Of a stretch of 64,000 bases of DNA, positions 9,033 to 58,600 are shown piece by piece (position 1 is the stretch's first letter; every line of letters starts with the position of its first letter). The notes beneath the pieces are model-generated. The model had not been told where the DNA came from, ran no database searches, and was given only the letters and a program-made list of their open reading frames with translations. The position numbers were made by a program, and so were the translations under genes. The DNA lies in the NCBI GenBank assembly GCA_044892505.1, contig CM097882.1, positions 555,458,001-555,522,000 on the forward strand, given 5' to 3'. This stretch comes from Schmidtea nova (Eukaryota).

Positions 9033-12000
9033 CTGAAAAATTAAAATAAATAATAAATAAAATAATCAATTTAAATATTTTTATAACAAAAATTCAAGGA
9101 GGAAAAATAATTTTTAAAATATTACAAATATTGAAATTATAGAGCTAGTATAAGCTATAATTATTCTAGAATCTAGATACCAAAGTAAAATTATTGACTA
9201 ATTTGATTAGTGTAATCAGCGCCGCCGTAGCAAGCTTTTCTAGTGCTATGTGCAAGATTTCATTTTTGGGCCCTAACCTAATACTAACGTTTCTAGTTAA
9301 TAATTTTCTATTGGTCACTAGATATCGTGATTTCATTCATGATAAACATAAATATATTCGCGTCAATTTAGAATTGGAATTGAATATGGAATATCTGAAA
9401 TTGAAAAAAAATGAAAAATTTGCCTGCACTAGCAGAATTTTTGGATCACCTATAAATGTAAATTTTCCCTGAGATCCGAATTTTTTATTTATAAAAATTT
9501 TTATTTTCGATTAATTTTTTTGGTTTATCATTTCACGGCCCCCTCAGATCTCTGTATCTATCGGGCCCTGTGTGCGTGCACCTGTCTAGGTACGGGGCTG
9601 ATTATCCACTATTAACGCATATTATCGTGTCATTCACGGCTGCCGCTTACTTGCACAATTTATTATCGTTGTATATGTAACGTTCAATGAAATTTTTGAC
9701 AAAAAAAATATTTTAAAGACGAAAATAATGCTAATGAAATAAAATATTAGTTTATATAAATATACTGTAGATTTATTTTGTCTACTGGATCAAATTGTTT
9801 TTGCTTAGTTGTTTAGTTTAGTTAACCCGTTATAGCCCAGCGTCCTATTTATAAGACGCCAGGATTTTATTTTTTTAAGCAATTAAATAATGTTCAAATT
9901 CAATATAAAAAATATTATTTTGTCCTTTAGTCTACACTGAACTAAGGATGATTTTTTTTATCTCAGTTCTTAAAATAGATTTTGAGAAAAAAATTATTTA
10001 ATTTGACATCATTTATCGCAATCCATTTCAAAGATAATATTTTACTGTAAATAATACCAAGCTTTATTTTTCTTTCGTTTTATAATTTATTCTAATTGAA
10101 AAAGGTTTGTTTTAACTTATAGTCATATATTTTTAAAGTAAACATTTATTGCTCGTTTGTTATGGTAAGGATAAAGTGGCTGTCATATAAATATGACGAT
10201 GGGCGTTCATGTTATCAAATACAGCACACGTCTACGGTTTTTGTCTATCGTTGATAGAGCGCGACTTGTGTGCGCACACTTTACTTATTCGTTGAGATCA
10301 GTTTATAAGTTATTTTTCTGAGTGGACAACGTGATTTTTATGTTTAAAAATTTTATTTTCCAATATTCGTGGAAGATATTTTATTTACGGTAAGTAACTA
10401 TATTTCAATGTTTGTTTTATATCATATTTTATTTTTATAAAGTAATAATTTAAAATATAAAATTCATAAATAATTTCCTTTTTATTATATTATTTTAACC
10501 TTTACAGATGTATCGAAAAGCATTAACATTACAAGAGTTAGAAGATATTATAAATGATCCGAACTTTATGGAAGCTGATGACGTAGATGTAATAGTTGTA
10601 CCAACAGATCCTGATGCGCTAACAGATGAAGATGAAGCAGATGATAATTTATTGGGGGTAGTAGATGTAAATGATGTTCCAGGGGAACTTGTGGTACATT
10701 ATAAAACATCAAAAAATTTAAAAGAAAGTAACACTGGTGATTTTGAATATGTCAATGAAGCTGGACCGTCAAATGTCAATCCGAATGTCGCAGAACAAAA
10801 ATTAAAGAAAAAAAGACGTTACCTCTCTGATGACACATTCTTATGGCGAAAAATGTCACCAATTTACACAAAACTTCCTTCAGAAGGAACAACAGCTACA
10901 ATAAATTCTGAAAAATTAATAAATACTCTATATGGAAAATCACCACTTGAGATTTTTGAAGAATTTTGAAAAATAGGACACATCAAAACACTAATTTTAG
11001 AAAAGTTAAAAAATATTTTATTAATAATTTCTTATTTAGAAGTCTGTTTCTGAGTAATGTATGTTGATAAAACATAAATTATCAGAAAATTTTTAAATTG
11101 GGCGTTAACGGGTTAATATACCATTTGTACCCAAATATAAGTAGATCTATAATTTTTATAGTAAAATATACAAACACATGGGACCATCTTGAAAGCTTAA
11201 AGTTCATATATTTGATTTATTCAAAAGTTAGGGGTTCAATTATAAGGCGATGAATTTTTGTAATAAAACCGTCGTAAACGGTATTGAAATAATCTTTTAA
11301 TGTAATTTTCTAACTTTTCAAAATAAAAGAAATGTTTTACCAAAAATTTCAAATTGTGTGATAAGTGGTTAATGCAATAATGTTTTTCTAAAGGTTATAT
11401 TCTCAAAGAATAGTACAAATTTAGAAAGATTGTCTGACGTTTATTCATAACATGCCTCAATCTTAAATATAGATTTCAGACATATATTTTCGGCCCGGCA
11501 TCTGTAAAAGCTGATATTGTCAGACATATACGGTTGAGGTGGTGATCAAAGTGTTAGGTTTTATAATAAACCGGTATAAAAATATGATATGAAAGTATTT
11601 TCAATTAAATATTAAAAACTAACTTGTTACTGATTCAGGAGAGACAGGTTCAAGTGTTGATACAATATCCCCTATTCCATATTGGTTTACTCCAGCTACT
11701 CCGAAATAATATTTCTTATCAGGCGACAAATTTCCAATTGTAATTTTATCAAGAAAATGATCAACATTAGTTATTTGAGTCCATTGAGCATCAGGTTTGT
11801 CTTCTTTTTGATAGATTAAATAACTGTCGACGTGATGCTGGTGTTTTTGTCCATGTTTGCATTCATTTGGTATAATCCATTGTATCGTTGCACTCGAAGA
11901 GCCCTTTCCAATCACTTTTACCCAAGCAGGAGCATCAGGAGCAAAGTGAGCTTCCTCAACCGAGAAATCATCAGATTTTAATAATTCTCCAGTTCCGTAC

Positions 12001-36000: not shown

Positions 36001-39000
36001 CAGACTCATTTAATTCATGTTCATCAAAACTAATTGCCATCTCTATTACCTTAATGTCTTCAATATGCTCCATTTGTTCGACAACTTCAATTTTCAAAGA
36101 ATTTATAAATTTACCATCGTCTATAACTTCATTACTGACATACTCTTCTATTTCCGACATAAAGTCTTCGGTTGAGTTCTCCTCTAAATGTTCACCTTGT
36201 TCAACTAATTCTGTTTGTAATTTACCTTCAATTAAAGGTTCAGTTGTGATTTCTTTACCAATGTCTTCTTCCACTTCATCAAGATTTTCGGTAATATTTT
36301 GGACTAAATGTTCAATCTGTTCAACGATTTCAGACTTGGAAAATTCACTTATATTTTCATCTTCTGTCGACTCTTCTGCTTTTAATTCATGCTTTTCAAT
36401 TGGAATTTCTATTGTTTCTATTTCTTGGACGTGTTCCATTTGTTCTAGAACTTGGGTTTTGAAATTATTTTCTATTTGAGATTCAACTGTCGATTCAGCA
36501 AGCAAATCTTCTTTAATTTCAATATTCAATTCTTCAACGAACTTTCCCTCCAAATGTTCTCCCTGCTCAACTAATCCAGTTTGTGCTTTATTTTCCAAAG
36601 GAAATTCAACTTGAAATTTCTCAACTTGGGTTTCTTCGACTTCTTTTATTTCTATTTCAATGACACTTTCTTCGATATGCTCAATCTGTTCTTGAACTTC
36701 TAAGTTCGACTGTTTTTCGAAGTAGGCTTCTTCCAAGGATTCTTTTAACTGTTCCTCTTTCAATTCACATTTCATTTGATTACTGGTTAATTCTTCAACA
36801 TCATCGGTCTGTTCAACAGCCTCAAATCTTGCGGCATTCTCAATTGAATCTTCTGTGCTTGATTTTTCAATAGTTCTTACTTCGAAATCTATATTCAATT
36901 CTTCCACAGTCTTTTCTTCTAAATGCTCTCCATGTTCCAAAACTTCGAATTCCGGTTGGAAATGTAAAGTATTCTCCTGCAAATTTTCATTTAATTTCAT
37001 TTCATTCCATTCCTGTTGTGTTTCATCGATTTTCACCTCTTCAACATGTTCCATTTGTTCAGGAACTTCATTTTTCGAAGAATTTAACTCTATATTTTCT
37101 GTAAATAATTCATTTGAAATACTTTCTTCGGTGACAATATTAAGTTCATAAGCAACCCTTTCTTCCAAATCCTCACTTTGTTCTAATACATTTATATTCA
37201 ATTGTAATTGTAGAATGTTTTCCTTTTGTTCATTTAAATCCGTTGGTTGATCCTCAACAATAGATCCATCAATGATTTCAACTTGTTCCATTATTTCAGA
37301 AGATTCGATCATTTCCGATGCTCTCAATGCTTCTTTTAACGGTTTAAATGACTGGATTTCTAAAGCTTTCTCTGTACATCGTTCAGACGAAGCTAAATTC
37401 AGAAGTTCATCTTCATTTATATCCTCAGTTTTTAATTCTGGTTTTAGAATTTCAATGGTCTTTCCAAGAGAATGAATTTTCTCGTCTTTGATTTCTTTAT
37501 CTATTTCAAAGGTTATTTTCTTCATTGACTTAACAATCTCGACTGCATCGGGTCTTTGAATGGTCAATTCTTCTGGGATTTCTATTTCCAATATTTCCGG
37601 ATGATCGATCATGGTATAGTCTTCCAAACCGGTTTCAGAAATTGAAAGTTCTTCCATTTCACTGATAGCGTCTGAATCCTTTATTTTGATGGCATTCATG
37701 TCTTCTCCATCAATTACATAGATGTCTTCAAAGATTGAAGTCACGGAACTCCTTGGAGAATAAATTTCAAATATAACTGATTCAGCAAAGGTGACCTTGT
37801 GTCCTGACTTGGAAAAATCAACCAATTCATATTCTTCCAATTCCACGATTTCAGCAGGTAATTGCATTTCTTCTACGTCTTGAGTTATGATGTTTTCAGC
37901 ATTAATTTCCTCCTCGAATTGAACGGCTAGTGATCGAATTGGTTTGTTTTCAGGAATAATATAATTTGTTTCAATGTTCACTTGTTTCACAAAGGATTCT
38001 TCGGTTGGTTTAATTTCAATTAAAACTTCCTCATTCTCATCATTAGAAATATATTCGATTTCCTCAACAATAACTTCCGTTTCCGTTTCTGCCATTCCAT
38101 AATCGTTTCGTGCAACACATTTATAGAGTCCTGCATCTTCGGGAAATACTTCGGCAATAACTAATTCACTTTTTCCATCCTCAGTCGAAAAGGTAATTTT
38201 CAATTCATCATTGGATTCAATAACTTCATTATTATGGTACCAGATCGTTTTCTGGGGCATTGGAGTAGCTTTGACAATGCATGACAGATAAAGCTTTTCA
38301 CCATCCATTACTGTAACTGGATACAAATCGGAAATGAAATTAGGAGCTTCTGCTAGTTCAACTGCAATTTCATATCCTTCTTCTTTCTCTTTCTCCTTTT
38401 CATTTTTAGTATCCTTAGTATTTTTCTCAATAAATGTGAAAGAGACTTCTGAATCATCATTTGCTGTTGAATCAAGCTTTATTATTTCTACATCCGATTT
38501 GGATGAAGAAGTGACCGTTGCCGTTTGTTGATTTTGATCTTTTTCTACAACATTATAAAATTTGTAATTAGTTTTCTTTCGAAACATACCTGGCTGTACA
38601 ATTGTTACAAATGTTCCTGTTTCAACTTGATTTTCATCCGTTGTAATGGTACACATGTATTCACCAGTGTCGTCTTCATTGAGGTTCACTACGGTTAAAG
38701 AGCAAAGTTGAACTTCAGATATCAACGCAAGATTAACTCTAGGAGATTCTGTTAACTCAACATCATCAAGGGTCCATTTGACTGAGACCGGGCTGTCACT
38801 TTCATAACAGCATTCCAAACTGAAAAATATAATTGTATAAAGAAGAATAATCTAAGATGATGATTATTAAAGAATAGAAAGTTGTTTAAATAAATAGATT
38901 TATTGGATGAATAAAGATTTGAATTATCTTATTATCACACAAGCTATCCGGGCATGATAAAAGATATATTAAGTGCAATTGAATGTTTTGACGGCGGAAA

Positions 39001-42000
39001 TATGAAAATCGATGAATGGCTCGATAAGTTTGAATTAATATGCAAACTTCACAAGTTCCATGGAAAAAAGGAAATTTTACCTGCTATCATGAAGGAGAAG
39101 GCATTTAACACTTTGAAGGAAGCACAGAAGAACGAAGGTATTAGTTATGAAGAAATTAAAAGATCATCGATACGAGCTTTCAGCGATCCCCCAGAAGCAT
39201 GTTTCTCCAAGTTGTTAAACAAGAGATTCCATATCGGGGACAATATTAACATTCATTTATCAGAAATGAAGAATCTGGCTTTTAACGCTGGAAATCTACT
39301 AATAAACATTGTAATCAACTCCTTGCCAGTAGAAATCGCAGCTGAGGTGAAAGGACAAATATCAACGAAGATCGACGCAATTGGTGATATCATTTCACGA
39401 CTGAATCTAGTGCATGGACATTAGTATGCCTTTGTAGCGAAGATAAAGAAGATACAATGTTTCATTTGTAACGAAAACCATTTTGCCCGTAACTGTCCAA
39501 ACAAAAAAAATCAATATTCCAGATGTGAAATGCTTGGACCACAATCCCGATATTGTAAATCGGGAAAATAAAAAAGGATCGAGAATATTCAGGAGTCTCT
39601 CTCAATCCCAAAAAATATGTTAAAAGAAGGACTCCTTTCCATAAATGGATCAAAACGGCTATGTCTTATAGATTCTGGCTGCTGGACAACGATTATACGC
39701 GGAGAATCCATCACATCACCCAACGCTCAAGTGTTTCTAGCAGATAGATCGATATAAAGCAGAAATAAAGCAGTATAAAGCAGAAATCTTTATCATTGAC
39801 TGTTTCATTTCTAGAAAAATGATAGCGGGATAATGACGTCATATTAGGTATGAATGCCATTATTGTACTAGGAGGCGTGACAATCAGTGAAGATGTCAGA
39901 TTTGGATGTGAATTGAAATGTTTGATGGCTGTAAACGGAAACGAAGCTCAGAGTTTGATAATTCAAAAGAAGAACTTCGAAGCAAAGTTCAACAAAGGAT
40001 GGATGGTATCCTGGAATTGGAACACAGAACCCCCAGTATCAATGTCACATCGATACTCCAAGTTAGATCCAGATAAGCCCAAAGCAGGCCAGGCACTCAA
40101 AGTCATTGAGCAGTGGGTCAAAAACGGATGGTTAGTCGAATATGACGAAAACCGGTTCGGTGAGCCTGTTGGAGCAGTAACTTTATTTCCGGTTATGCAA
40201 AAGAACAAGAGCAAAATACGGTAAGTGTTCGATTTTAGAGCTTTATATCATTATTTAGACGTCTATGGTGGAGAAGCAGTAGTTTGCAATGGAACAATAA
40301 GGGATTGAGAAAGAAGGGAAACAAATAGCGATTTTGGATTTATCTGATGCGTACATGCAAATCCGGATTGATGAGAGTATGTGGAAGTACTAGTCATGCA
40401 TTGTAAACGGAAGGTGATATCTATTGAAAAGACTAGGCTTCGGAATCAATATCGCTCCCGGTATTATGACAGAGATCGTTAATTACGTGTTGGGTTTAAA
40501 TGGCAGAATAAAACAAGGAGCCAATGCATACATAGATGATATTTTTATATACGAAGAAGTTGTCCCAGCTGAAGAAGTAAAAGCCTAGCTAGGTATATTC
40601 AACTTGATGTCGAAAGAAATTGAACGCCCTTCGTCAACAAAAGCTCTAAGAATACTCAGATTATCAGTTCATATTAAGGATAACGTATTAAAATGTAACC
40701 GAGCCAATGTCATCCGGTACGAATTTGAAGAAAAGAGAATGGATAGACGAGAACTGTATTCATTATGCAATCAAATAACCGGAATTCTTCCAGTTGCAGG
40801 TTGGTTGCGACCCGCGTGCTCTTATTTCAAACGATTAAGCGAAGGAGAATGGGACCGGCCAATCCACGTACAATTACTAGACAAAGTTAAATGGTTAAAA
40901 AAGGAGGTTGAAAAGAATGATCCAGCTCATGGTATATGGAAAGCACCAATGGACAGAGGAAATATTTTATGGTGTGATGCCAGCTCTATCGCTATAGGAG
41001 CAGCGTTAGAAATCAACGGAAATATCATGGAAGACGCATGATGTTTGAGAAAGGAGAAGGACTTTAGGCAGATTAACCTGTGCGAACTTGAGGCGATCGC
41101 TAAAAATGCATCAATTTATGCATCAAATGGAATTTAAAGACCGTAAAGATCATGTCAGATAACAACTCCTTGGTAAGTTGGGTGCATAATGTCTTGACAT
41201 CCGATAGAAAGGTCTCAACGAAAGCTTCTTCAGAAATGTTAGTAAAAAGAAGGCTCAACATTATTAAAGAACTTATTATTGAATATGAGATAAAGGATGA
41301 AATAGAATACGTTCCAACAGACAAAAATAAATCCGACATATTAACCAGAATTCCCTTATATTGGATTACGAAGCATACGTAACACGGCATTACCAGGCCC
41401 GGGTGAAAATCTCATCAAGAACACAGTTTAAATACACAAATTAAGCCATTTCGAAGGAGACCGGTTGAGGTTCTTCGCCGAGGAAGCAGGATTTAATATT
41501 TCTCAAAATGAGTTAAAAGTGATTGCCGAGAAGTGTGACAAATGTCAATCAATAGACCCTCATCCGGTTAAGATCAGCAAAGGGCAATTAGAGGTAAAAG
41601 ATTCTTGTAAACGATTAGCAATCGATGTGACGAAATTACACCAAAGAAAGTTTTTAACAATCATAGATTGCGGGCCTCCTCGATTTGCGATTTGGCGAGA
41701 AATACGAAACGAAAGCGCAGACGAAATTTGCAAGCAGTTGAAACAGGTATTTTATGAAAGAGGGCCTCCTGACGAGATTCTGTTGGACAATTACTTATCG
41801 TTTAAGTCAGAAACTTTCACTTCTCTAATGAAAAAGTGGAGAATTAGAACTGAATTCAGATCCGCTAATAGACCAGCAGGCAATGGCATTATTGAGAGGA
41901 ACCATAAAACAATAAAAGCAGCAGTCACGCGAACGGAATGCTCAGTGCAAGAAGCAATTTACTGGTACAATAATACACCAGTATGTGGTTCTTTCAGACC

Positions 42001-45000
42001 CCCAATAAAAGGCATTTACACTTATGACCTAAGACTTCGATTTAATTAAACAAACAAAACGGCTCAACAAATAGACAATGGCTTTCAGGTTAACGACAAG
42101 GTGTGGGTGAAACCCGCGCAAAATCAACCATGTACATCTTCCTGGATGAGAGGAAGAATCCTGAAGTTGCTGTCTCCGCATATAGCGATCGTCGATTATT
42201 GAACCGTGGCAATGCCACGTCATGTAGCTAACCTAAGACACAGGAATGAAGATTTGTCAGAATCTCGGGGAGATGTATAAAGAATAATCTAAAATAATGA
42301 TTATTAAAGAAAAGAAAGTTGTTTAAATAAGTAGATTTATTGGAGGAATAAAGATTTGAATTATCTTATTATCACAGTAATAATTTAATCTTAATCTTCT
42401 ATAAAATTAGAACATCTTTAATTTCTTATTTATTTCCATTTAAGTAACTTATTTACTTTTCATAATTTAGGTTTTTGTTAGATGCAAATAAATCATTTAC
42501 TTTCATTTTTTTCAAATCAAAGAATTTCTTTTCTATTTAGCACAAATTTTTGGCACTGACTTTTTAAATGTTATTTGAAAAAAACAGGACTTTCAAAATT
42601 TAATCTATTTTCTGTAAAAATTCAAAATAAACGAAATTGTAAAAAAAATCAAAAAGGAAAAAGATTAAAATTTTTAATGAAAATAGATCAATAAATTCTT
42701 AAGAATAACCAAAATTTTAGACAATCTTTATAGCATTTAATTTGAATTTACTTTAAAAAAAGTTAAACTCAAATTTCCGTTTATAGATTATCAAACAAAA
42801 GTTCAATAAAATTTTCACTTTTTTCACTTTTGCTCTTTTTTATTTCAATTATTATCATATTTTCAGACAATAAATAAAAAATATTTTCTCCAGTTCAATA
42901 CAAAATTTTAACATGGTCTATTTCCAATATTATTTATAAAAGGTAGTACCGAAAATTTGTATTGGATAGAAGAAAAACCTTTTTTGATCAATTATATGAA
43001 AAAATGATAATAATTGAAATTGATAAAATACCAAAGGAAAAGAAGATTAAATATTAATATTATATTTAAATCCGCAATATGACAGCTTAGTGTAAGTTAC
43101 AATTTGAGTTTAAACCGTAAGCGGCCCAAAGAAAAACTAGAGAGTAAACCTAATTTCTTGACACCATTACCATTGGATAAATTCTATAAATGACGTTTTA
43201 ATTAAATTTTAAATTAAATTTTTTTAAATTTTTTAAATTATTTAAATTTAAATTAAATTTTTTTAAATAACGTTTTGATTAAATTTTAAAATTTTTTGTT
43301 TTGCTTAAATATTATTGTGAATTTGTTAGTTTGGGTAAAAATTTGAAATTAATAATTCTTGAATAATTCTTATTTGTTATTTTAAATTTAAATTTGATAA
43401 ATGTCTTCTGATCCTGAAAATTTAAATATTTATTTGACGATGATAATTTTGGATATTGGGCTACTCGCTCATTTGGTTATTGAAGATTGGAATAAAAACG
43501 TATCAAACGATATTTTTGTTGACGAATTTATATACAGACATATGAGATTCGTAGTAAAGAATTAGATGCATTAGAGCCTCATTACCCAACCTGTGGTCCT
43601 CAGAGCTGATTTGTGCGGACCTTGAGGCATTAGAGAAATTTTGTTAATTAAGATACAAGTTTTATGTAAATTTCTTAATACAACAACATTCTTCTTTGAA
43701 ATATAATAATAAATTATAGAAGAGAAGTATAGCTTATATAAGCTATTTTTAAACAATGCTCTTCAGATCTTTCCGACGTTAATTATATTTTTTATAAAAA
43801 TCGAAAGTAGCGGTCCGCGGCGACGACATACTTCATCCAAAAGGTCCGCGGCTACAAGGAAGTTGGGAAGCACTGCATTAGAGGACTTATTTATCCATCA
43901 TGGAGTTCCAAATTTATCTGAAAAGGCAATAGTAATTGATGCTTAGGAATGAAGAAATAATGATGACGATGTCTGAATTGTATATCTTACGTCTAAGCGT
44001 AAAAGTTCACTGATATCTATGGAAATTAATATCAGTAGATCTAGCAATCAAACCATTTTGAAAAAGCTGGAAATCTGTTCACATATTTTATGTTAGATAT
44101 TAAAACAACTTTTATCTATAATTTTATTAAAAGTAAAAAAATATTGACTTACTTTAATGTTTCTCCCACTAGTTTCGTGATTTCTGGCTCCAATTCCGAT
44201 TTGAATTTGATTGCCTTAATGATCTCATTTGACTCGAGCTTCTTTTCGTTTTCAACTGTCATTTCCGGCCGTTGCTCATTTTCTTTGTCGGAAATTATTG
44301 TAAATTCCTCTTCCAGTTCCTGATTTTCCACAAATACCATTTCCGACTCAATATTTTCAACACTGTCAAAAGTGTTATCAGCATCTTTGTTGATTAATTC
44401 AAAGTTTTCGTTCGAGGTTTCCATTGCGTCCGTTTTGTCCACAATTTCCGTTTCCGATTCGATTGATTTTTCCGTACTTAATTCTACAGTTTCCTGAGAA
44501 ACTTTCATGATTTCATCTGATAGCCTTTCACGGTCAAGGTTTTCTTTAACACTAAGCTTGGCGACAGATTGAGCTTTTCCGTGAACATTCGACGCTACAC
44601 ATCTATACAATCCATCATCATCGGGGAATACTTCCTTTATTATTAGAGTTGCCAATTTCTGATCTTGATCGAATTGAATTTTGAAGTCTTCAGCATGAGT
44701 GACATTTTCTTCATCGTGATACCACGTAATTGATAAAGGCATTTGACCATCGACTTGACATGACAATTCTGCAGTTTGGCCGTCGACAACTTCAATATCC
44801 GACAAGTGTGAAACAATAATCGGTTTGATCTGATCAGCTACTCTAACGCTTTCCGTTGGCTGGATCATTTTCTCTATTAAATCTTTTCGCGGTGAGCAAA
44901 TATTTGCAATTGAAACTGCTGCCAAAGTTGGTTTATTTTCCAACGACTCAACCGATACTTCCACACGAACTTCCTTATCGTTTTCAAATTCCTGCAAAAC

Positions 45001-48000
45001 CAGTTGACTTTTGTTGATATAATTTATAATGCCGACATTCTCATTCGATTCAACTTTCTTCCCGTCAATGATCCAGTCAATGTGAGCCGGTAAGTAACTA
45101 GTCACCCAACACTCCAGCATTGTTGCATGGTTTTCCGGTACATGGATAAATTTGTCCAAAGATCTCACGAAAGATACCGATGTTAAATGATCATCGGCTT
45201 TGTCTTCGTCAACTTCCGGTTGAATTGCAATTTCAGAAATACTACTAATAGTCATCTGAGGATAGCAGGCTTCCACTTTGATTTCTTTGACCGATTCTAA
45301 CAATGGTCCGGCGACGGTTAATTGAGACTGGTTTTCTTTGGATTCCACAGTGACTTTATTGTTTCTCACCAAATCTTTATCATCGGCGTACCATTTGAAT
45401 TCAACGGTTTCATTGCACTCTTCCACTTTACATTCAAATGTTTGTAGGACATCTTTTAACAAAAGCGTTTTCTTCGGTAGTCCTTTGGTGAAATGTGGAT
45501 TGGATTGTAGAGTTTCTTGATAGGAAGGTCTAATAACTATGTCACATGAGGATTTGATTGTCTCGGTTTCGGTGTTAACTTCAACTTGAATTGTTGAATT
45601 GTTAATTAAGTCAGTGTTGTGAATGACCAATTCTGATCGGAACAGATCAGGATTTGTAAGAATTTCAATTTCAAATGGCTTATTGAAAAGTTTCTCTTCA
45701 TTTCTGTACCAATTCACTTTTATTGGTTGATCTGTAGGTGCGATTTCACATTCAAATACGACAACAGAATCCTTTTCGATTGTTTGTTTTACTGGTAAAG
45801 GTTTTGTGAATGCTAAACTCTCGGATTGCTTAAGTGACGGTTGAGTGATTTTGTTTTGATGAAGAGGAATCAAATCAATTTTCGTAGACGTCAAAATTCG
45901 TTTACCAGTATCGGTAACCGCTTCACATGTGTATATTGCTATATCATTACTGTCTAAGAGGTCCACGATTAATTCTGAATGAAATTGGTCCGGAATCTCA
46001 ATGTGATACTTATCATTGGATTCGATTTCTACCCCATTGACATACCATTTGAATATGACAGGTTCTTCTGATTGCAGTTCTACACTCAATTCAGCTTGTT
46101 CTTTTGGTTTGTAGACTTGTTGAGGCTTCAACGGTTTAATGAAGATCGGCGATGTTTCATTCTTAACAAAGTTCGTTTCTTCAACTTCAAACGGTATCAT
46201 TTCCAATATGCACGTTGAGACGAGTTTACCGAATTGACTGTCAACCTCAACACTAATTTCTCCCAAATGGTTTTCATTGATCTCTTGGATGAATAACTGA
46301 GAATAGAACTGGCCCATAGTTAGTTCATAGGTCTTTTCTGTTGATTTTAAACGAATTCCATTTACATACCAAGTAAAGGAAACCGGCTCGTCTATCGGTT
46401 GAATCTCACAGAGCATTTTAAGAGATTCCTTTAATTTGACATTTAATTTCTCAGGAAGCGATTTCTTGAATTCGAGAACGACAGGTTTGTCATATTTTAA
46501 CGTTGTCCGGGTCATGGCCACTCCGACATCGTTATCTGCACGCAAAATGTAATCTCCACAATCCGACTCGTTAGGGTTGCTGATTGTCAATGCAGCAAAA
46601 CCTTCTTCTTCCTCATCAATCGTATACTTTTTACTAGGGTTGATAATTTGCCCATTAAAATACCAGATGAGGTTCGGTTTTGGAGATCCGACTACTTGGC
46701 AAGTTAATCTAAAAGAACAAAGATTTATTATTGAAATACAATTGAAAAATTTGCAAAGTTCTTCGTTTAATAAATAAAAACTAGCAATCTTGAAAATTAT
46801 TTTATATATCAACCACTTTTAAAATAAATATTGTTTAATAAAGAAAATTATATCTTAAATTATTTTAACCCTCAATTAGTTTCATGTGGTCAATGTGACC
46901 CCCGGCTATTGGATAGCGGTTGCCTCTGCCAAAAGACATAGTCCCATGACCAACGTTCCTTCTAAGCTGAGCGGCTGAGCGGCCGCTCACCTAAAATTAT
47001 ATTTCTACCCAGCCAAAGTGATTTTCCGCACACCTGAAATTTTTTCAATTTTTTTTCTCCAAATTTTTAGAACTTTTTACTTTTTGTTCTTTGAAAATCA
47101 GATTTTGCGATTGCGAATTTGGGAATTTTTTCTGGGAATTTCATTTTATACAGTGAAGTTGGCAATGCTGTGAGTTTATTGCCAAATATTTTCCAGTTTG
47201 AAAGTTATAAAAAATATTTTCAAAAAATTTGGCAGTTTTTCTTTTACTAACAAATAATTGCCCACATAAATTTTCTGCCGCTCATGTTGTGAAAAAATAG
47301 ATGGAACGTTACCAATGACCCACGCCACTAGTTAGGGAAGTTAAATTTCGCAGCTAATTGAGGGTTTAAATATTAAGAATTTTTATAGGACAAAAAATTA
47401 GAAGTACTTGGAACTACTGGTTGACTTTCTGGGAATACAACAGAAGGCGGCGTATATCTTATATAAAAGCAATATTAATATAACGCAGACCGACAAGCAA
47501 TTATCTAGTTATAGGCATTTAAGTCCAGTCTATAACATGTTATACGTTCGCAAATTATCCCAAATGAAGGAGAAATAAATAATGTTTTATCACAGCATAA
47601 TTGTCTAAATTTAGGCAGATATGTAGAGCCATGCCTTCTCTACGAACTAGTTTCAGTGATTTTACAATTTTATAAACTCATTTTTGTAGAAACTGGAATT
47701 ATTGCTGTCCAAGAAATACCGACGTTTTTCTTTCAAATTTCCATCTTCTAATCTTCTTCCTATTTGATCCATAGTGCATCTGCAACTTTATTACTAAAAG
47801 GCAATACACGAGTCTATCGTAAAAAGTAAATATTCGTTTTGTCCACCAAAAGGAGCAATGGCGAAAATGTAGTAAAAAATGTGGAAAATAATTTATCTTT
47901 TTAACTTTCTTTTGTAATCGTTTATATAACCCCGGCCAAAACTAACCGGAGACCAAAAGAAAATCAGTTTATGAATACCTAAAACATATTAAACCTACTA

Positions 48001-49579
48001 CCTCTCCATATTAAGGATATGAGAACGTTCAGGTGACATATATATATACGTGTGTGTGTTTGCAATGGTTTACGGCATGTTAAAATCCTTGTGATTATAC
48101 CGGTGATGACTGTATGTGCCGATTTTAACATATTTTTCTCTATTTAAAGTGAAATAAATCAGAAGGGTCGGCTAATAAAATGTGCAGTATTAAAAGTTAC
48201 GACAAGATGTATGTGCTCTCACACCCTTCCAAACACTAATAAACTTGAACATTGCAAGGACAAAGAGCAGAGCGATAGACAGTCAGTGACTGTCATTCTG
48301 TTGTGACTTGCGACTCATGAACGTGTTGAATTTGTATTTCTAGTGTGTATTTTTATATTAAAGCATAATTTTGGAAATATAGGGTAAATTATATTAAAAA
48401 TTGTGAGGTATGTAGTTATTTTTGGCAGGAGTTGCATTTAAAATTAAAATTTAAGATGTCAATTTTAAAATCTTACACAGTCGATATTGTATCAGGACAT
48501 ATTGGTAACTTTTCGGGAAGTTGCTTCAATATTTTTGGCGCCTTCATTTCGATATCCTCAATTACCGTAACAGAACTTCTTGTTGAAGACGTATAGTCAT
48601 CTAAAAAAATTCGAAAGGAATTATTTCCAAAGACACTTTTAAAAAGCAATACTTGTTACAACCAAATCAGTTTCACATTGAACGGTGCCATTTGGATTGT
48701 TTGCGATAACAATATATTTCCCAGAATCATCTTGGAATAGTTCTTTGATATAGAGAGTGTGGACATTGCCGTCATGAAAAAGCTTTAGAAGACATCATAA
48801 TATATGGACACCGAAATACATTGTATTACTTGATAATCGGGCATATTGTCGATCAGAACTCCATTTCTATACCATTCAAGTTTTGGATTTGGATTACCCA
48901 TCACGTCGACTAATAGTTTGCACGGTTCTCCTTCTTTGGCAGTCATATTTGGCTCGAGGGATCGAATAAATTTCGGCGCTTCGGTTTTTGGAAGTTTTTT
49001 CGGTACATCGATTGTCAATGATGTGCTAAATTGAGCTTCACCGACACTGTTAATGGCTTTGATTGTATATGTTCCGGCATCGGTCTCATTCACCGAATGG
49101 ATAATGAGCTTCGTATATTCATTGTTTTCGTAGATTAAAGACACTTTTTCCGATTCCTCAATGGATATGTCATTGTGATACCAACTGACTTCCGGCACTA
49201 AATATTAATTTGGCTTTAATTATTCTCAAAACATTTCTGCTGTAACGCAAAAATAAATGTTTAGGGGTCTGACAAGTCTCAAAAGCATACAGTGAGTTTG
49301 GTGAAATTTCGAAGAAGTACCTCGTTTTTGCTTTATAAGTCGCGGCTTATTAGTCCATATGACAGTTTTCAAATGACGCCACTTCGATAATTAATAGTAT
49401 TTAAGTACAAATTTTTCACAATACATTATGCGGCTTTTTCGAGGTAGTGAAAACGTTTTTTTGTAAAAATATCAGTTAGTAGAGTGCGTCTTAAGAGAAA
49501 GGTCCAATTTAGACTTTGATCCTAGCAGCCGGGTTATTAATTTTGAACTTCATTTTGTCTAACTGGAAATAGTTTAAGT

Positions 49580-49650
<71 letters not shown>

Positions 49651-52600
49651 TATGGATAATAAATAGTTAATTTTTTAACACAATTAGTAACTCTCTGGAA
49701 ATGTTTTTTCATTGTCCTTTTGACTTCATTGTTAAGTACTGAACAATACCATTCTGAGTTCATAGATTGGCCGACCTCCAAAATTCTTAGTTCACTTATC
49801 CCTTTACAGCTGAAGCATCCCCGCGCAATTAAATGTAAGCTATGTTTTACAGTGGGACATAAAAATTATGGCAAATCTCTGTCACATGAATGAAACTTTA
49901 AACGAGTTCTAATCAATAAGTGCATATACTTAATTCAGATAAACAAATGTTGTTGAAAAAATGCAGATGTCCTTATGTTTTTGTCTGTACTTGTATATAT
50001 TTGATCAAAGTGATACAAAGTTGTGATATTCAATGCAGAGTAAGGCAGGAGTGGCCAGCATTTTGTGGCCTGGTCATAAAGTCACTGGTCTCAATTTAGG
50101 TTGGAATCGAGTTTTTAACATGGTACTGACGATAGTCAAGCAATATCGAAACTAATCTACCTTCAACATTTTCATCTAATATCACATTAAAAACACTTTA
50201 TAGTAATATTGTAAATTAAATTTTAATTTCTCAAAAAGACTTACCAGGATATCCAATAACTCTGGCTTCAAAAATTGCTTTTTTATTCAAACTAACTTTG
50301 ACACTCTTTGGTTCTTGAATTATTCTTGGACTCTGTGACGATTGAGGCACACTATCAGCGCTTTCTGGTGCCACTTAAAGTAAACAGAAATAAATTAGAA
50401 AAAATTCTAAATAAAATTGTACTTGTAACAGAAAGATGAATTGTAGACTTAACGCTACCAAATGGATTCCTAGCAATCAAGTTATATTCACCTGTATCAT
50501 CTGTAAAGGTCTCATGGATGTACAATGAGACAACATTTCCATCTCGGAATAACTATAAATTTTTTTATAAATTAACAATTGCCAAAATTTAAAATAAATT
50601 ACTTTGTAATCGGGATTCTTTTCTATCACTATTCCGTTTTTATACCATTCGACTACTGGGGTCGGGTAACCATCAACTTCAGCGAGCAATTTCACAGAAT
50701 CTCCTTCTTTCACTTGAATGGATTTTTCTAACTCTCTCACGAACCTCGGTGGATAAGAGGTCTTTGTTTCATCCAATGATATTATAGCCGCACAAGAATC
50801 TTCTCCTGCATTATTTGAGATTTTAAACTTATAAACTCCAGCGTTTGTATTCTTCATTTTTTCAATGGATAAAGTGTGAATATTTAGTTTCGATGAAATG
50901 TTCAAAGCGTTGTTTGGTTTCAGTTCTTGATCATTAAGGAACCATTTTGTTGAATAATCTGAACCAATTCAATATTTAAATCCTTAGGACTCAGAAATGG
51001 ATAAAATTGTTTGCCAATTTCTTTGAAAAATCAAACTGTTTTTTAGAAAGATAATTTTACAAAAATTCATAATATCAGTAACAATTAACGCGGCAGTGCC
51101 AAAAATTTGTATTGAATAAGAGAAAAAAATAATTTTCATCGATTATTTGAAAAGAAAAATAACTAAGTCTTTTATCTACCAACAATTGACAAAGGTAGTT
51201 ATTATTTACCATATCTTTTACATTTTTTGAAAATTAAATGAATAGCATGGCTCCTGTGGCCGTCATCATTAGTCAACAGTACTAAACTGTCCTTAATCTC
51301 TTATAGCAGTGATAAGCAACCTCAACTTTCCCTGGCGTAACAAAAAGTCAAATACCTGGTTGGCCCACATAAAAAATTTGTATTTTTTTTCTTTTTAGTA
51401 TTGACGAAATCGCATTTAGTTTCTGTTATCTATGTTTATTTTAATTTTTTATCATAAAAAATTTACACTTATAACATATTTTTTAACTGTAATGTAAAGA
51501 TATTTGAAATAGTGACATCGCATCACATATATCACAGTGGCTGAATGCTAGGAACACAAGAAAGTATTCCAGAAACATAATGATTTATAAATCGGGAGAA
51601 TGGAACTGAAACTACAGCACAAAGTATGTGAAATATCGGCAGAGACGGCAGCAATTATTATTTGATGTAACACTGTTTTGTTGCCGATCAATACCGATAT
51701 ACCGGTGCCAAAAAAGAACATGAGATGACCACACGTATGCCTTGGGCCGCGGGTTGCTCATAAATGTTCTATAAGAAAAAGATAATGGTACAACAATATT
51801 ATGACTCAATAAATCAAATAAATATTCTTATTACATTTGTTATTGATTGAATAATTAATATAGACAATTGGCAATTTATTATCAATACTTCACAAAAATT
51901 TTATTATTAGGAAAATATTTTTGTGACTGAAGCAAAGTGTCAATCCACTTTGCTAAATATCCGAATAACAACAAATTTATGTGTGTTCTTATTTGACTTA
52001 TTGAATAATAATACTATTTCATTATTGCCTTTAATTTTATCTATACCTTTATTAGGCAAAAATAATTTAATCCATGACTGACTAGGATGACCATGTCGTT
52101 AAAATGTATTCCTTTTTAATTTAAATTTTTTATTTAAATTGGCTTGTTGTTTGCCTCCAAATATTGCAATCGATTTTTCGTCCACTTTCGATTATCCAAN
52201 NNNNNNNNNNNNNNNNNNNNNNNNNNNNNNNNNNNNNNNNNNNNNNNNNNNNNNNNNNNNNNNNNNNNNNNNNNNNNNNNNNNNNNNNNNNNNNNNNNNN
52301 NNNNNNNNNNNNNNNNNNNNNNNNNNNNNNNNNNNNNNNNNNNNNNNNNNNNNNNNNNNNNNNNNNNNNNNNNNNNNNNTTCTGTGTATAATCCAAAAAT
52401 TAGCCCCCGCTGATGGTGATACAGTCTACTGCGAAATATGAAATTATGTGAATATTGAACATTTATTTTTTAATATAAGGCTATTGATTTGGTTTTCTGG
52501 TATAATAATAATTTTCATTTAATAGTAATTAAAAAATTGATACAAATATTTAAAAAATTTGATAAAATAAAATAAATTTATTTAAGAGAAATCTATAAAA

Positions 52601-55600
52601 CCATTTTCTTCAAAATCTTTGAATGGTACTTGCTTAGCCATAGAAAACATGACTTTCAAGTTATATTTTTATTTTATTAATATTCTAATTATATGCAACG
52701 ATAATATTAATCAAATTATTTTTTAACAATCAAGTACTTATCCAATTAGTAATTTAGAATCAAATAATATACATTTCCATAGAAAAGAGATTGTTACCTA
52801 AAACTAAATTGGACCACTCTGGTCACTTCCATGTTTTCTAGGGTTAATTTATGTTTAAGTTTGCTTTGGAAATAATTTTGATATTTAAAAATATTTATCA
52901 TTTGCTTTTCTTATGATCTTAAGAAGGGTTGCCAGACGTCACGGTTTTCAAGTCAATGTCCCGGAGTCCCGAAAGAGGATTTTGAGACGCTCATTCGTCC
53001 CAGTTTAAATTTTTAAAATGAAATTTGAAAACGTCGCGCTTTTCTTTTACAATTTTAATTTCTTCATCGATGTTCTTTGCAGGGATATATTTTTTTGTTG
53101 GGTTTTATAAATAACACGTAAAAAATTTTGATTCAACGTTTGGCTGGGCATAATTGTAAAATTAGCGATGTCATGTGTTACTTTGTTGATTGAGATTAAT
53201 ATTTATGTACATTTTTTAGTTTTATAAATAAAACAATGTATGCGACTAGAAATAATTTAGTATACTTGTGTTGCTGCTTAATAATGATAATAAATTTTCA
53301 ATTACTGTGATTATAAAATATATAAATATAAAAATAATATTTCAAAATTGGTGCTTATTACAGGTAACCCTCGTTTAACGCAGTTTACTGGTTCCGTGTT
53401 ATCTAAAACCGGGTTAAATAAAACTAAAAATTTACACATAATAAGAAAATTATAATAAGAAAAGAAGTTAAAAATTTAATTATATTTTGAAAAAAATTAC
53501 AATGCTATACAAATCCGCGTTCTCAAAGTACCGCGTTAAACGAGGGTTACCTGCATAACATACATAAATAATTTAAATAGTTTTAAGTAGGGTTGCCAGA
53601 CGTCCCGGTTCATCGTGGTAAAAATCTGGCAATCCTATCTTAAAAAAGATACGAATTCTCGTACTTTTCAAATGAATGAGGTTCAAATTTATCGACTTTA
53701 CTTTCATTTTTATAATACAATATATTTGTGGATAATTTGAATTTATTGATCTATATATCGTCTCATGAGAAAAAGAAGAGAAAATAAATATTTTAAAATG
53801 TACATTTTATTTATATATTTTTTAACAAATAAATTATCAATTTACCCTTATTGATATTCGTTTGAGCTATGAGTACTAATTTTTGATTTTCCTTGAAAAT
53901 GACATTTGAGAATGGTTTGACGATTGATGGTTTTTGGAGAATTTCTTTCGGTTTAACTAAATTTCAAATACCATATAAACAATACCGTTCTCATAAAATT
54001 TAACTACCAGGCAGAACCGTTAGTCGACCTTTTGTGATGGCTGTTCCGAGAAAGTTCGTTGCTCGTACAGAAAATACTCCATTATCTCTTTCCAAAGTTT
54101 GCGGAATTTCGAGTGAAGCAATCAAATTAGATGTGACAATCTTGAAATTTTAATTACGGTTACTAGTTAGAGACAATTGGTATCATACTTTCATATTTGG
54201 AGAGGATACGATTTCTTGCTCATCTTTGTACCATTTGATGTCGGGTTTTGGATTGCCTGTAAATTCAACGCGAAATCTAATTTATTAAATGAATCAATTT
54301 TTGATAAAAATAAATTTATTTTTACATAGCTGGTTTGCCTTCATCGACTTTTGCTGATTGTAAAATGGCTTTAAAAAGAGGAGGTTTACCGTCAATAGAA
54401 GACGGTTTTGATTCAACACTTTCGGACCGTGACATTGAATTTGCTAAAAAGATAAAATTTAATAAAAATTCTTTTGAAATAGAATTTTTTCTCTTACATT
54501 GTTGACTTAACCGACGTTCCGGTTTGGCAACAACAATTAGACTTGTATCCGCTCTATCGGTTCCGTTGCAATTTTGAGCGATTACGTCAATTCTAGTGCT
54601 ATCATAGATTTTACAGTTTTTAATCGTCAAACTATGATGTAAATTGTTAGATTCGACAATGCATTTCTCGTAAAAAGGGTTTTCTTTTGCTAATTGTTTC
54701 CCAGCCAATAACCATGAAACTTGGGGAATGGGAAACCCGGTTAATTCCGCAGTGAAAATCGCAGTTCCTCCGGGTTCAATTTTACACGCAGTTGGACACT
54801 TGGTGAAACAAGGCATCGTTCCTTCAGCATTTTCAGGAATATTTACAGCTGATAAACTAAAAATTTCCATTTTAATTAAAATCGAACACTAGAAATATTG
54901 TTTGGTACTTTGTTGATTTCTTCTGCTTTGGAACTGCTTTCATCCACTCTGGAGGATTTATTGTGGACTCGATTTTCACTAAATGTTTTATTGTCAAATT
55001 TTTCAATTGTGAAATGCAAATAAAAATAGTTCAGAATCATTGACAAAAGAATTCGCTGACATTTTCCAAAGCATTTAATTAAACGGCAACCATTTCGGAA
55101 ATACCCTTTCCCTGACTCCAAAAATTCAATATTTAGAAAAAGAGGACTTTTGTAAAAAATTACAGAAATTTATAAAGGTAATGAATTTTGAAGAAATAAA
55201 TGAACATTAAAATTGGCACTTATAAAATTAAATAGAGTTTAGGTGTATGATTTCCCTAAGATCAACTGCTTTTAACCCATTAAGCGGTTTGATGCGTTGT
55301 ACTAAATGGTTTCGCTGGTGGCCACGTATATCAGGTTAATGTGTTGAAGAACAAAACTAGAATAAAATACACGTTATGTTTTCCAAATCATTAATAGCAA
55401 CGGCACATAAACAAGTTGAAGCTTGCAATGTGTACATCCCTTCTCTATTATTAGGAACGATAACGCGTATATATTCGACATAATTATTAAGAATACAAAG
55501 CAAATTCAAGCACTACACAATACAATAGGCCATGAAAAATACATGGTGCGGTCAAAATGTTTCCGGCCTACCCTACTTAATAAATTGATTTTTTAATGGA

Positions 55601-58600
55601 AATAGGTTTATTTTATTGGAAATTTATTGACAAGTTCATGTTAAAAATCTTATTGACCTAATCCATTTACTTTATCTGTTGCAGATGGAAATGTCGTTGC
55701 AAGTGCATTCGCTGGAAAAAATTGAGTATCGCAGTGCTATTCGCTTTTGTGTTCTTCTCAGCCAAACCAACCAGGAAATCATGGCAAATCTGAATCGAGC
55801 CTATGGTGAAAAGTGTCCCTCTCAGTCTACCATCAAGTTTTGGATTGCTGAATTCAAACGGGGTTGGCAAAGTGTGTCAGATGAGGAACGAGAGGGTCGA
55901 CCAACGACTTCGAGAAATGAAGATGTGAAGGAAAAATTGGAGAAAATGGTACTGGAAGATCGCCGTATAACTACCAGGAAGCTAGAAGAATCCCTACAAA
56001 TATCACACGGCACCGTAGTGAAATTATTGAAAGACCTTAACTTCAACAAGGTGGTGTCTCGCTTTGTGCCTCACTTTTTGACAACTGAGATGTGCAATAA
56101 CCGAAAGAATGCGTGTCTCATGAACCTCGCCATTTACCGCAAGTATGGAGAAAGATTTATCCAAAACATCCTCACTGTTGATGAGACACTGTTGCCCATA
56201 AATCAGTCTGGATCAAAGCGGGAGTCTATGGAATGGAGAAAGCCGTAAGAAGGAAAAGTTTGGAAGTCTCGTTCTTGAATGTCGCACAGACGAGAACTCA
56301 TGTTGACTGTGTTTTGGAGTCATAAGGGAGTGATCCTCACCGACTTTCTTGAGAAGGGACGGACAATCAGCGGAGAATATTACGGTAATCTCGTTGAACA
56401 AGCTCGTAGAAAGTGCCGAAAACCATATGGTCTCCTTCACTGGTTTCAACATGACACCAGCCGCATTGCCCAAGCAAAACTCAATGACTGTGGCTTCGAG
56501 ATCATTAGCCAATCTCCATACAGCCCTGATCTGGCTCCCTCAGATTACTGCCTATTTACGGAATTGAAGAAGCAACTGTGGGGACAGTATTTCATGGATG
56601 CAGGCAGGATGGGGCATTCGAAGCCCTCCCTGGTCGTTGGCAGAAGTTAGTCGATGCTGGAGATAATTGGTTCGAGAAGTAATGGTATTGGTGTTGATAA
56701 AAATATAGTTGTGGTTTCTTGCTTTTACTTTTTTCTGGGGTAGGCCGGAAACTTTTTGACCGCACCACGTCTATGCGACATTTTTTCAAAATTATCCCAG
56801 ACATTTTTGTAATGAGTTAGTTTTAAATGGGCTAAAACTAAAACAGTAAAAAATGTGTAACAGTAAAAATAAGAGGTTTCCTAGCGGGGCCTTGAAAGAA
56901 ATTTTATACAAGAAATAAAATTTTATTGAAAATTTATTTATTACGTTAGGAATATTAAGAAAACATTTAAATTAATAAAAATTAAATTAAAATTTCAAAT
57001 AAAAACTAAAAAAATCTTTATCATAAAAATATTGTCATAAGTCGAATCAGAAATCGTTGTTTTGGTTTTACTATATACATATATTAATATTACACTAGAA
57101 AAACTTTAATTAATATAATTAATTATGTTTTAAATTATTATAAAGTTATTTATGGAAATTTTTTTAAAAAACAAAAGATAAAAATAATTTATTAATAACA
57201 TTTTATTTAAAAACAGGAACGACACGGGGCCTTGTGCGGTCGCACGGTTTGCACCGGCATCCGGCAAGCCCTGGGTAAAGTATTTACATTAAAACATATT
57301 TTCTTATTTTATTTTTAATATATAAAATATAATATTATTTAAGTGTTAAAATTTTAAAATAACTAAATTTGTTATATTATTAACTAATAATATTATTTAA
57401 GCAACGACTTCCTAATTTCAAATTCATAAAAATCACGACAGCAGTGTGAAATATAGGCTGTTGAAAACTAAATTTACAAATATCAAACATTATGCCCAGT
57501 AAGCAAAAATGGAATTAATAGTAAGAAGAAAATTGTTTCCACGTAGTTAAGGAAGTTCTAATTTTTCAGTCAGAAATAATTAAATTAATTATTGATTTTC
57601 TTTCGAGAATTTAATTGAATTTTCTCGAGAATGGAAATCCTCGAGATTATAATTCCGTTGATTAACTCAAATTGAGATCAATCCACAATAAATTGTAAAT
57701 TAATCAAAATTTCAAGTTTCCATGAAGGTGTACTTGTGCACACTATCAACTTAAAATGGCTTTCTCGATAAAGTATAACCAAAATTGAACCTCTCAAAAC
57801 ATTACTATTAGAACGTAATGATAAATATAATGTCAATCCTCAGACTAATGTGGTTAATGGCTTGGTAGAGTTAAGAAACATTCCAGGCTAAAAAATAGTC
57901 GTGCAATTTCTTGAATCACTGCGATATCCGGGCTTGTGATTTGCAATTTTATCACCAACTATTTCTGATTACGTTACTGTTGTTTATAAAAACTACCCAC
58001 TGCTAGTAACCTCTTAACGCACCAATAAAAACTTAGAAAGTGGTAGTTTTTCTGCCGATTTTTTATTCTTTTTTTTTATTTTTACACACAAAAACATTAG
58101 CAATATCTGTAAAAAAAATTACCAAAATATCTCATTTGCAAAAAAAAGTTGACTAAACTTCGTATACTTTGCCGAACTGGGTTAACTCGGGTAACAAAGA
58201 AATCTTGGTAATATTCGGCTTAATTCATATGTGAAACCAGAGTTCAAACTTTCACGTATTAACAATCTCGTTTGAGTGAGATAAGAGGTAATGATAGGGG
58301 GTTGCTGGATTCTCATCTAAGAAATAGCAAACTTTTTTATGAAGGATAAGAAACATTGAAACTTAATAATTTAGAACAGGGCGAAAAACAGGCGAAAAAG
58401 GGATTTATAATTAAATTCATTTTAAATTGTATTTTAATGTCATTAAATTTTATAATGAAAGGGAACTCTTTAAAAATAAATTACTACTGCATTTGTTTGT
58501 CTTACAATATCTACCGCAACCAATTCAACCTTTGAGCGACTAATTCCATATACAGAAATTAAGTGGTCAAGGTCAATGAAACTAATAATATTAAAGAACG

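Follow-up and report, generated by a model that had tools for sequence, protein, structure and literature searches.

The 12 bases that follow the 5′ LTR of a decayed element in Schmidtea nova are likely its primer-binding site, and the primer that they predict is a 12-nt fragment from the 5′ end of a host tRNA. Sequence comparison gives strong support for pairing with tRNA nt 1–12 at the priming position across the whole lineage to which the element belongs. Our fuller reading is tentative, and we hold its chance to be somewhat below even: in an unnamed, deep-branching lineage marked by DUF7047, the reverse transcriptase (RT) would capture the 5′ strand of a tRNA and the RNase H would cut from it a 12-nt primer, a CCA-independent and undescribed route.

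The window, meaning the whole 64,000-nt stretch of DNA that was analysed (GCA_044892505.1, contig CM097882.1, positions 555,458,001 to 555,522,000 of the forward strand), holds a 3.54 kb LTR element at 38834–42376 (+), in an intron of a titin-like gene encoded by the opposite strand. This copy is 92% identical to young copies, its own LTR pair is 95% alike, and both gag and pol are disrupted by stops and frameshifts. The following features were assigned:

38829..38833: target site duplication, left copy, 5 bp; the right copy is at or just after 42377 and is imperfect or 3-shifted
38834..38941, (+) strand: 5′ LTR, 108 bp, TG...CA
38942..38953, (+) strand: predicted primer-binding site, 12 nt, exact complement of host tRNA-Lys(TTT) nt 1–12, abutting the LTR
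38954..39613, (+) strand: gag, with 2 stops here; two CCHC knuckles in relatives with open frames
39559..42277, (+) strand: pol, encoding protease, RT, DUF7047, RNase H and integrase, in −1 frame overlap with gag; frameshifts and 12 stops here, counted over four aligned pieces
42267..42273, (+) strand: short polypurine tract preceding the 3′ LTR
42274..42376, (+) strand: 3′ LTR, 95% identity to the 5′ LTR, with a damaged right end

The surrounding host gene is of titin/twitchin type and occupies 4315–38851 and 44149–60600 of the window on the minus strand, with Ig and fibronectin-like repeats (labels read from the translation) and a glutamate-rich exon of ~3500 codons made of ~558-bp repeats. 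Remains of other mobile elements lie at 55631–56248 (+), 10499–10969 (+) and 40–1323 (+), and from their translations are listed as a mariner-like transposase piece, a piggyBac-like piece and a Polinton-type DNA polymerase piece.

A sequence-only reading of this DNA had counted 14 nt between the 5′ LTR and the gag ATG. The spacer is really 12 nt (38942–38953), and the CA at 38940–38941 is the end of the LTR; the miscount arose because the window copy's own 3′ LTR end is damaged. In other copies the boundary can be set by the 3′ LTR and the 5-bp target duplication, and there the LTR-terminal CA stands directly against the 12-mer in 24 of 40, the remaining copies comprising 15 without a 3′ LTR in the stretch examined and 1 with an altered terminal base. 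When the window copy is counted, the site abuts the LTR end in 24/26 Lys-type elements with both LTRs. The same reading had proposed a primer of 12–14 nt, exactly complementary to tRNA-Lys over nt 1–12. The exact complementarity is borne out by the host tRNA-Lys(TTT) genes called with ARAGORN, which start with the complement of the 12-mer. A length of 12 is likewise upheld, and the two additional bases fall away, tRNA nt 13–14 being unpaired with the LTR end. Three observations had been named in advance as counting against a tRNA 5′-end site: a differing host tRNA-Lys(TTT) 5′ end, a TGG-type site or variable sequence in other copies, and a better partner within the element itself. We found that the host 5′ end matches, that other copies keep the site and carry no TGG-type site, and that the element offers no self-priming partner.

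Genome-wide, the 12-mer has 1127 matches and its reversed control has 1. The tRNA-type base comes next in 690 of these 1127, and the first 100 listed of the 690 fall mostly in one tandem array that ARAGORN calls tRNA-Lys(TTT), the gene starting exactly at the match. The 70 dispersed matches that we examined belong to three element families (36, 22 and 11) plus 1 singleton; CA precedes the 12-mer in 69 of them, and the three Lys-type families have unrelated LTRs. Of the best 30 DNA matches to the window copy, a set in which that copy is counted, the site is exact in 24 and carries one or two substitutions in 6, with a TGG site in none. The predicted duplex energy of the window site is −23.5 kcal/mol with Lys(TTT) nt 1–12, compared with −14.6 with Phe. 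The primer site is covered in four contig sets, with little variation. Separately, an isolated fragment of a tRNA-Lys(TTT) gene, comprising its 5′ part and the flank upstream of it, was seen outside the array (G000:C1:256592990, L063).

Other priming or pairing routes were considered and rejected. For canonical 3′-CCA priming, there is no TGG-starting site near the LTR that pairs with a tRNA 3′ end; a TGG further on in 4/6 elements is the start of gag, with no 3′-end complement to the cognate tRNA. For Tf1-type self-priming, the longest self-complement is 6 nt and lies outside the LTR, and duplexes with the LTR reach −6.2 and −2.7 kcal/mol. Half-tRNA priming is at odds both with pairing to nt 1–12 rather than to the anticodon stem-loop and with a domain order that is not that of Ty1/copia. 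Pairing with a pre-tRNA leader was set aside because the site is followed by a base that varies.

Pairing with the tRNA 5′ strand might also serve something other than priming, such as packaging, RNA dimer formation or control of gag translation, with priming taking place elsewhere or through a second, 3′-end site in a bipartite, Ty3-like arrangement. The gag ATG lies a few bases past the site in most families, and this adjacency makes a role in translation possible. Minus-strand priming in LTR elements must begin at the LTR edge, though, and nothing else is there to host it; no second site for tRNA nt 13–76 rises above shuffle level in 6/6 elements, and the variants matching tRNA-Lys(CTT), described below, also count against a non-priming role. 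We consider it very improbable.

Covariation with host tRNA 5′ ends, which the sequence-only reading had named as possible support, was found within the host itself, where the second partner is tRNA-Phe. A looser site pattern gave 1286 matches in the host genome against 434 for its control, and one further 12-mer accounts for 60 of the first 100 looser-pattern matches listed. This second 12-mer is the complement of host tRNA-Phe(GAA) nt 1–12, and the tRNA genes again form a tandem array. Phe-type sites head at least 7 further families that are related to the Lys-type elements in gag and pol. Phe is no less common a partner than Lys. In 15 longer stretches with Phe-type sites, the site abuts the LTR end in 9, the 3′ LTR is damaged in 1 and none is in range in 5, so that 9/10 Phe-type elements with both LTRs have the site against the LTR end. 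Lys-type and Phe-type sites are distinguished by two bases, exactly those by which the tRNAs are distinguished, and no cross-conversion between Lys and Phe was found among 120 sites examined. Host tRNA-Thr is not used as a partner (2 matches), despite having the same nt 7–15, and the 5′-fragment model does not explain why it is skipped.

These comparisons bear on whether the site could be a conserved binding motif for Gag or integrase whose likeness to tRNA 5′ ends is fortuitous. Within the lineage the outer 8 bases hardly vary, which would suit a protein motif, but these outer bases are common to the tRNAs too, and the variable middle tracks two host tRNAs exactly. Within-host covariation thus largely refutes a protein motif, which we regard as scarcely credible.

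A third apparent host site type (middle TGAC, 5 loci) was dropped, having no LTR pair, gag, pol or matching tRNA. Its loci lie in a repeated fragment that, from reading its sequence, we take to be ribosomal protein-like. A dispersed repeat carrying what, on the same kind of reading, seems to be a ribosomal-protein pseudogene fragment (L282, L283, L285, G000 C1) makes up about one-fifth of the first 100 looser-pattern matches listed. The host genes for tRNA-Lys(TTT), Phe(GAA), Thr and Lys(CTT) stand in very large single-type tandem arrays, with units of 419, 240, about 230–420 and 739 or more bases, respectively; the arrays are placed at C3 ~72.78 Mb, C1 ~566.9 Mb and 20.7 Mb, and C2 ~333.4 Mb. 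We also observed a tandem pair of elements with one common LTR (L293, G000:C1:4056900-4062900), in which a further primer site follows the middle LTR.

Every one of the 120 relatives listed (pol proteins) has DUF7047 between RT and RNase H, at pol residues 401–457 in an open-frame relative, and this domain may serve as a marker of the lineage. Named relatives are from nematode, barnacle, leafhopper and bryozoan records (Trichuris, Amphibalanus, Macrosteles and Watersipora), and lineage proteins also occur in many environmental assemblies; no relatives were found in the viral contigs set. Among 75 metagenome loci, some of them near-duplicates, the pattern CA-AGCTA-n4-GGC is present on the sense strand in 46 and on the antisense strand in 0, with 0.18 in shuffles. 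Three further loci have the 12-mer after another dinucleotide and five have a near form, bringing sites of this type to 54/75; in the remaining 21 the region is missing or lost, and none of the 75 has a canonical primer site. Where both LTRs are complete (n = 3), the site abuts the LTR. The site is thus kept across unrelated LTRs and across pol proteins that are ~35–45% identical.

Seven different middles occur among the metagenome sites, and we compared them with the tRNAs of Schmidtea nova and with a published Drosophila probe. The commonest middle (14 loci) equals the 3′ end of a Drosophila tRNA-Phe 5′ probe, as that probe is printed in PMC7038984. Middles equal to the Schmidtea nova types are found at 11 loci for the Phe type and 1 for the Lys type, whereas one other variant (11 loci, mostly from one clade) and the five near forms have no tRNA assigned to them. 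The match between site and tRNA always ends at tRNA nt 1 and nt 12. Some site variants are also found at phage tRNA 5′ ends, which is uninformative on the hosts of the loci. On a tree, site types are clustered and the host Lys-type family C is separate from A and B; this was a quick method applied to 70 of 91 rows with no outgroup, from which the order of events is not readable. In the gag of one metagenome relative (L204:628-660), a sense tRNA-Lys(CTT) 3′ end overlaps the complement of a tRNA-Lys(TTT) 3′ end; the overlap runs through the palindromic acceptor end, as if one tRNA had primed on another and been captured, and it is present in a single copy.

A primer that is copied back into element DNA would be expected to leave a trace where host tRNAs differ. 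Within their first 16 nt, host tRNA-Lys(CTT) and Lys(TTT) differ only at nt 7. We found that, genome-wide, 7/9 element copies changed at the base facing nt 7 carry the G that matches CTT, a count from which two further variant matches were left out as not being elements. With a background share of 0.25 for that change, the binomial p is 0.0012, while a control T of the site shows the same change in 0/4 independent copies (Fisher p 0.021); this test is post hoc, the pattern having been noticed first and then tested on overlapping data, and the numbers are small (7 copies). The seven CTT-type copies are scattered over two families, none of them that of the window copy. In one of the seven the two LTRs are identical, and its 383 flanking bases show 0 differences from those of its nearest neighbour. 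This pattern modestly suggests that the tRNA was copied into element DNA as primer. The survival of primable mutants could be an alternative source of the CTT pattern, and it also requires pairing with the tRNA 5′ end. Retroviruses are described as copying the primer into the site, and Ty1 and Ty3 as not doing so (PMC7472051). As a candidate for a 13-nt primer, we looked at the LTR-terminal base, which changed to the tRNA-matching G in 9/18 changed copies against a background of 0.37; this gave no signal.

The mechanism that we favour would begin with element RNA invading the tRNA at its acceptor and D stems; the resulting RNA duplex, of 12 bp, would stop at the LTR edge. U12 of the tRNA faces that edge, and the primer 3′-OH would therefore have to be at nt 12. 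RNase H may then cut between U12 and C13 to leave this 3′-OH, a step with about as much for it as against it, and comparable to the Tf1 cut after nt 11. RT would extend from nt 12 into U5, for which there is modest genetic support, and plus-strand synthesis would then copy the fragment back into the site, running off the tRNA 5′ end. The 12/13 position falls within the D stem of the folded tRNA and the length is constant across tRNAs and hosts, making a cut after annealing more plausible than a free-floating fragment.

The most likely cutter of the tRNA is the element's own RNase H, acting as in Tf1 but in trans; by analogy with Tf1, we give this roughly an even chance. Tf1 RNase H is reported to cut the first 11 nt off the element's own transcript as its primer (PMC7175516). 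Four acidic residues of RNase H are invariant in 53/53 proteins of the lineage, and such conservation, expected in any LTR element, permits but does not show RNA:RNA cutting. At tRNA position 9, the base opposite almost every site is an A. In human cytoplasmic tRNAs methylation is frequent on G9 and rare on A9, as given in PMC10275265, and the narrow choice of tRNAs may reflect this rarity of A9 methylation, an explanation that does not cover the skipping of Thr.

Alternatively, the primer could be made by the host, if a longer 5′ fragment or half anneals and is trimmed to nt 12 by a host nuclease or 3′ exonuclease, or if the 12-mer is made directly. All of the sequence results fit this equally well, the element has no extra nuclease gene, and the half-tRNA primers of copia-type elements, as surveyed in PMC6317226, show that cut tRNAs can prime. 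Even so, position 12/13, inside the D stem, is an unlikely place to cut a free tRNA, and a single length for different tRNAs and hosts better suits a ruler set by the element. Cuts of the RNase A and T2 type, moreover, leave ends that are unable to prime unless repaired. On balance, a host-made primer appears unlikely, though with an appreciable share of the probability.

Nor need the tRNA be cut at all if RT were to prime from the 2′-OH of U12, giving a branched RNA-DNA molecule in the style of retrons, which prime from a 2′-OH. This would account for the fixed position and for the invariant pairing with tRNA nt 8–12, and no RNA:RNA nuclease would be required. We know of no LTR-element RT that primes in this way, however, and copying tRNA nt 7 into the site would need passage of the 2′-5′ link, making 2′-OH priming very improbable.

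Three primer types are distinguished for plant LTR elements in the survey PMC6317226: the whole tRNA, a half tRNA produced by a cut in the anticodon stem, and a self-primer. A 12-nt 5′ tRNA fragment, if it is indeed the primer, would add a fourth. Our literature search, in which the site sequences were included, found no precedent for priming by tRNA nt 1–12; Repbase, GyDB, Dfam and most subscription papers lay outside that search. Two invertebrate surveys (PMC5408684 and PMC6238403), searched by term, returned no statement on primer sites. We think it unlikely, though with a chance far from negligible, that such priming has already been described elsewhere. In annotation pipelines that check only tRNA 3′ ends, these elements would come out as lacking a primer site, and the site may have been overlooked for this reason. 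The fourth primer type would mark a whole widespread lineage rather than a one-off, and very short 5′ tRNA fragments would have a direct role in replication, as primers. It would also link tRNA priming to the RNase H priming of Tf1, and elements using it are predicted to escape silencing by 3′ tRFs and to be exposed to 5′ tRFs instead.

The sequence-only reading had called the element Gypsy, a label that holds only at the level of domain order. The pol order of protease, RT, RNase H and integrase is of Ty3/gypsy type, and TG...CA LTRs, a target duplication and a polypurine tract are present as in that group. Profile and fold matches are about equally distant and weak to Ty3, foamy virus, MMTV and HIV proteins. 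Pfam RT_RNaseH models gave no match at E 0.1, the RNase H is missed by the usual Ty3/gypsy Pfam models, and Protein Atlas, PDB and fold searches returned no clade name.

Among flatworm Ty3/gypsy elements, Saci-2/lennie and CsRn1 are similarly compact invertebrate elements, and TGT...ACA LTRs are shared with the Saci-2 type. Those groups are described as having CCCH or CHCC Gag motifs and 4-bp duplications, with a tRNA-Trp site in CsRn1 (PMC2582038, PMC12471100), whereas the elements here have CCHC knuckles, 5-bp duplications and DUF7047. We rejected membership in Saci-2/lennie on finding neither the CCCH motif, the 4-bp duplication nor a fused Gag-Pol, the gag and pol frames overlapping instead; membership in CsRn1 was rejected on the lack of the CHCC Gag motif, the tRNA-Trp site and the 4-bp duplication.

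With canonical 3′-CCA priming the elements share the identity of the tRNAs (Lys-UUU for HIV and ETn/MusD, Phe-GAA for IAP) and a site beside the 5′ LTR; they differ in using the opposite end of the tRNA, with no TGG, no spacer and 12 rather than ~18 nt. The copying of the primer back into the site that is suggested here is a further likeness to retroviruses, as these are portrayed in PMC7472051. The half-tRNA elements of Ty1/copia (copia, Ty5, Osser, Bryco, Bianca and fungal Copia/Helenus) resemble them in having a 3′-truncated tRNA primer. Half-tRNA systems, as presented in PMC6317226 and PMC10886601, use an anticodon stem-loop site and belong to Ty1/copia lineages only, and truncated tRNA primers are reported for Copia lineages only in PMC10886601; in the Schmidtea nova element, by contrast, the site pairs with nt 1–12 and integrase comes after RT. 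The closest parallel in the form of the primer is with Tf1/sushi (Schizosaccharomyces pombe Tf1), where it is likewise the extreme 5′ end of an RNA, set at the LTR edge, with 11 nt in Tf1 and 12 nt here. Pfam found no chromodomain in the lineage's element. Release of the primer by RNase H has been shown for Tf1, according to PMC7175516, and is the step that we infer here. Tf1 draws that primer from its own transcript, whereas the elements described here, having no self-complement, would take it in trans from a host tRNA.
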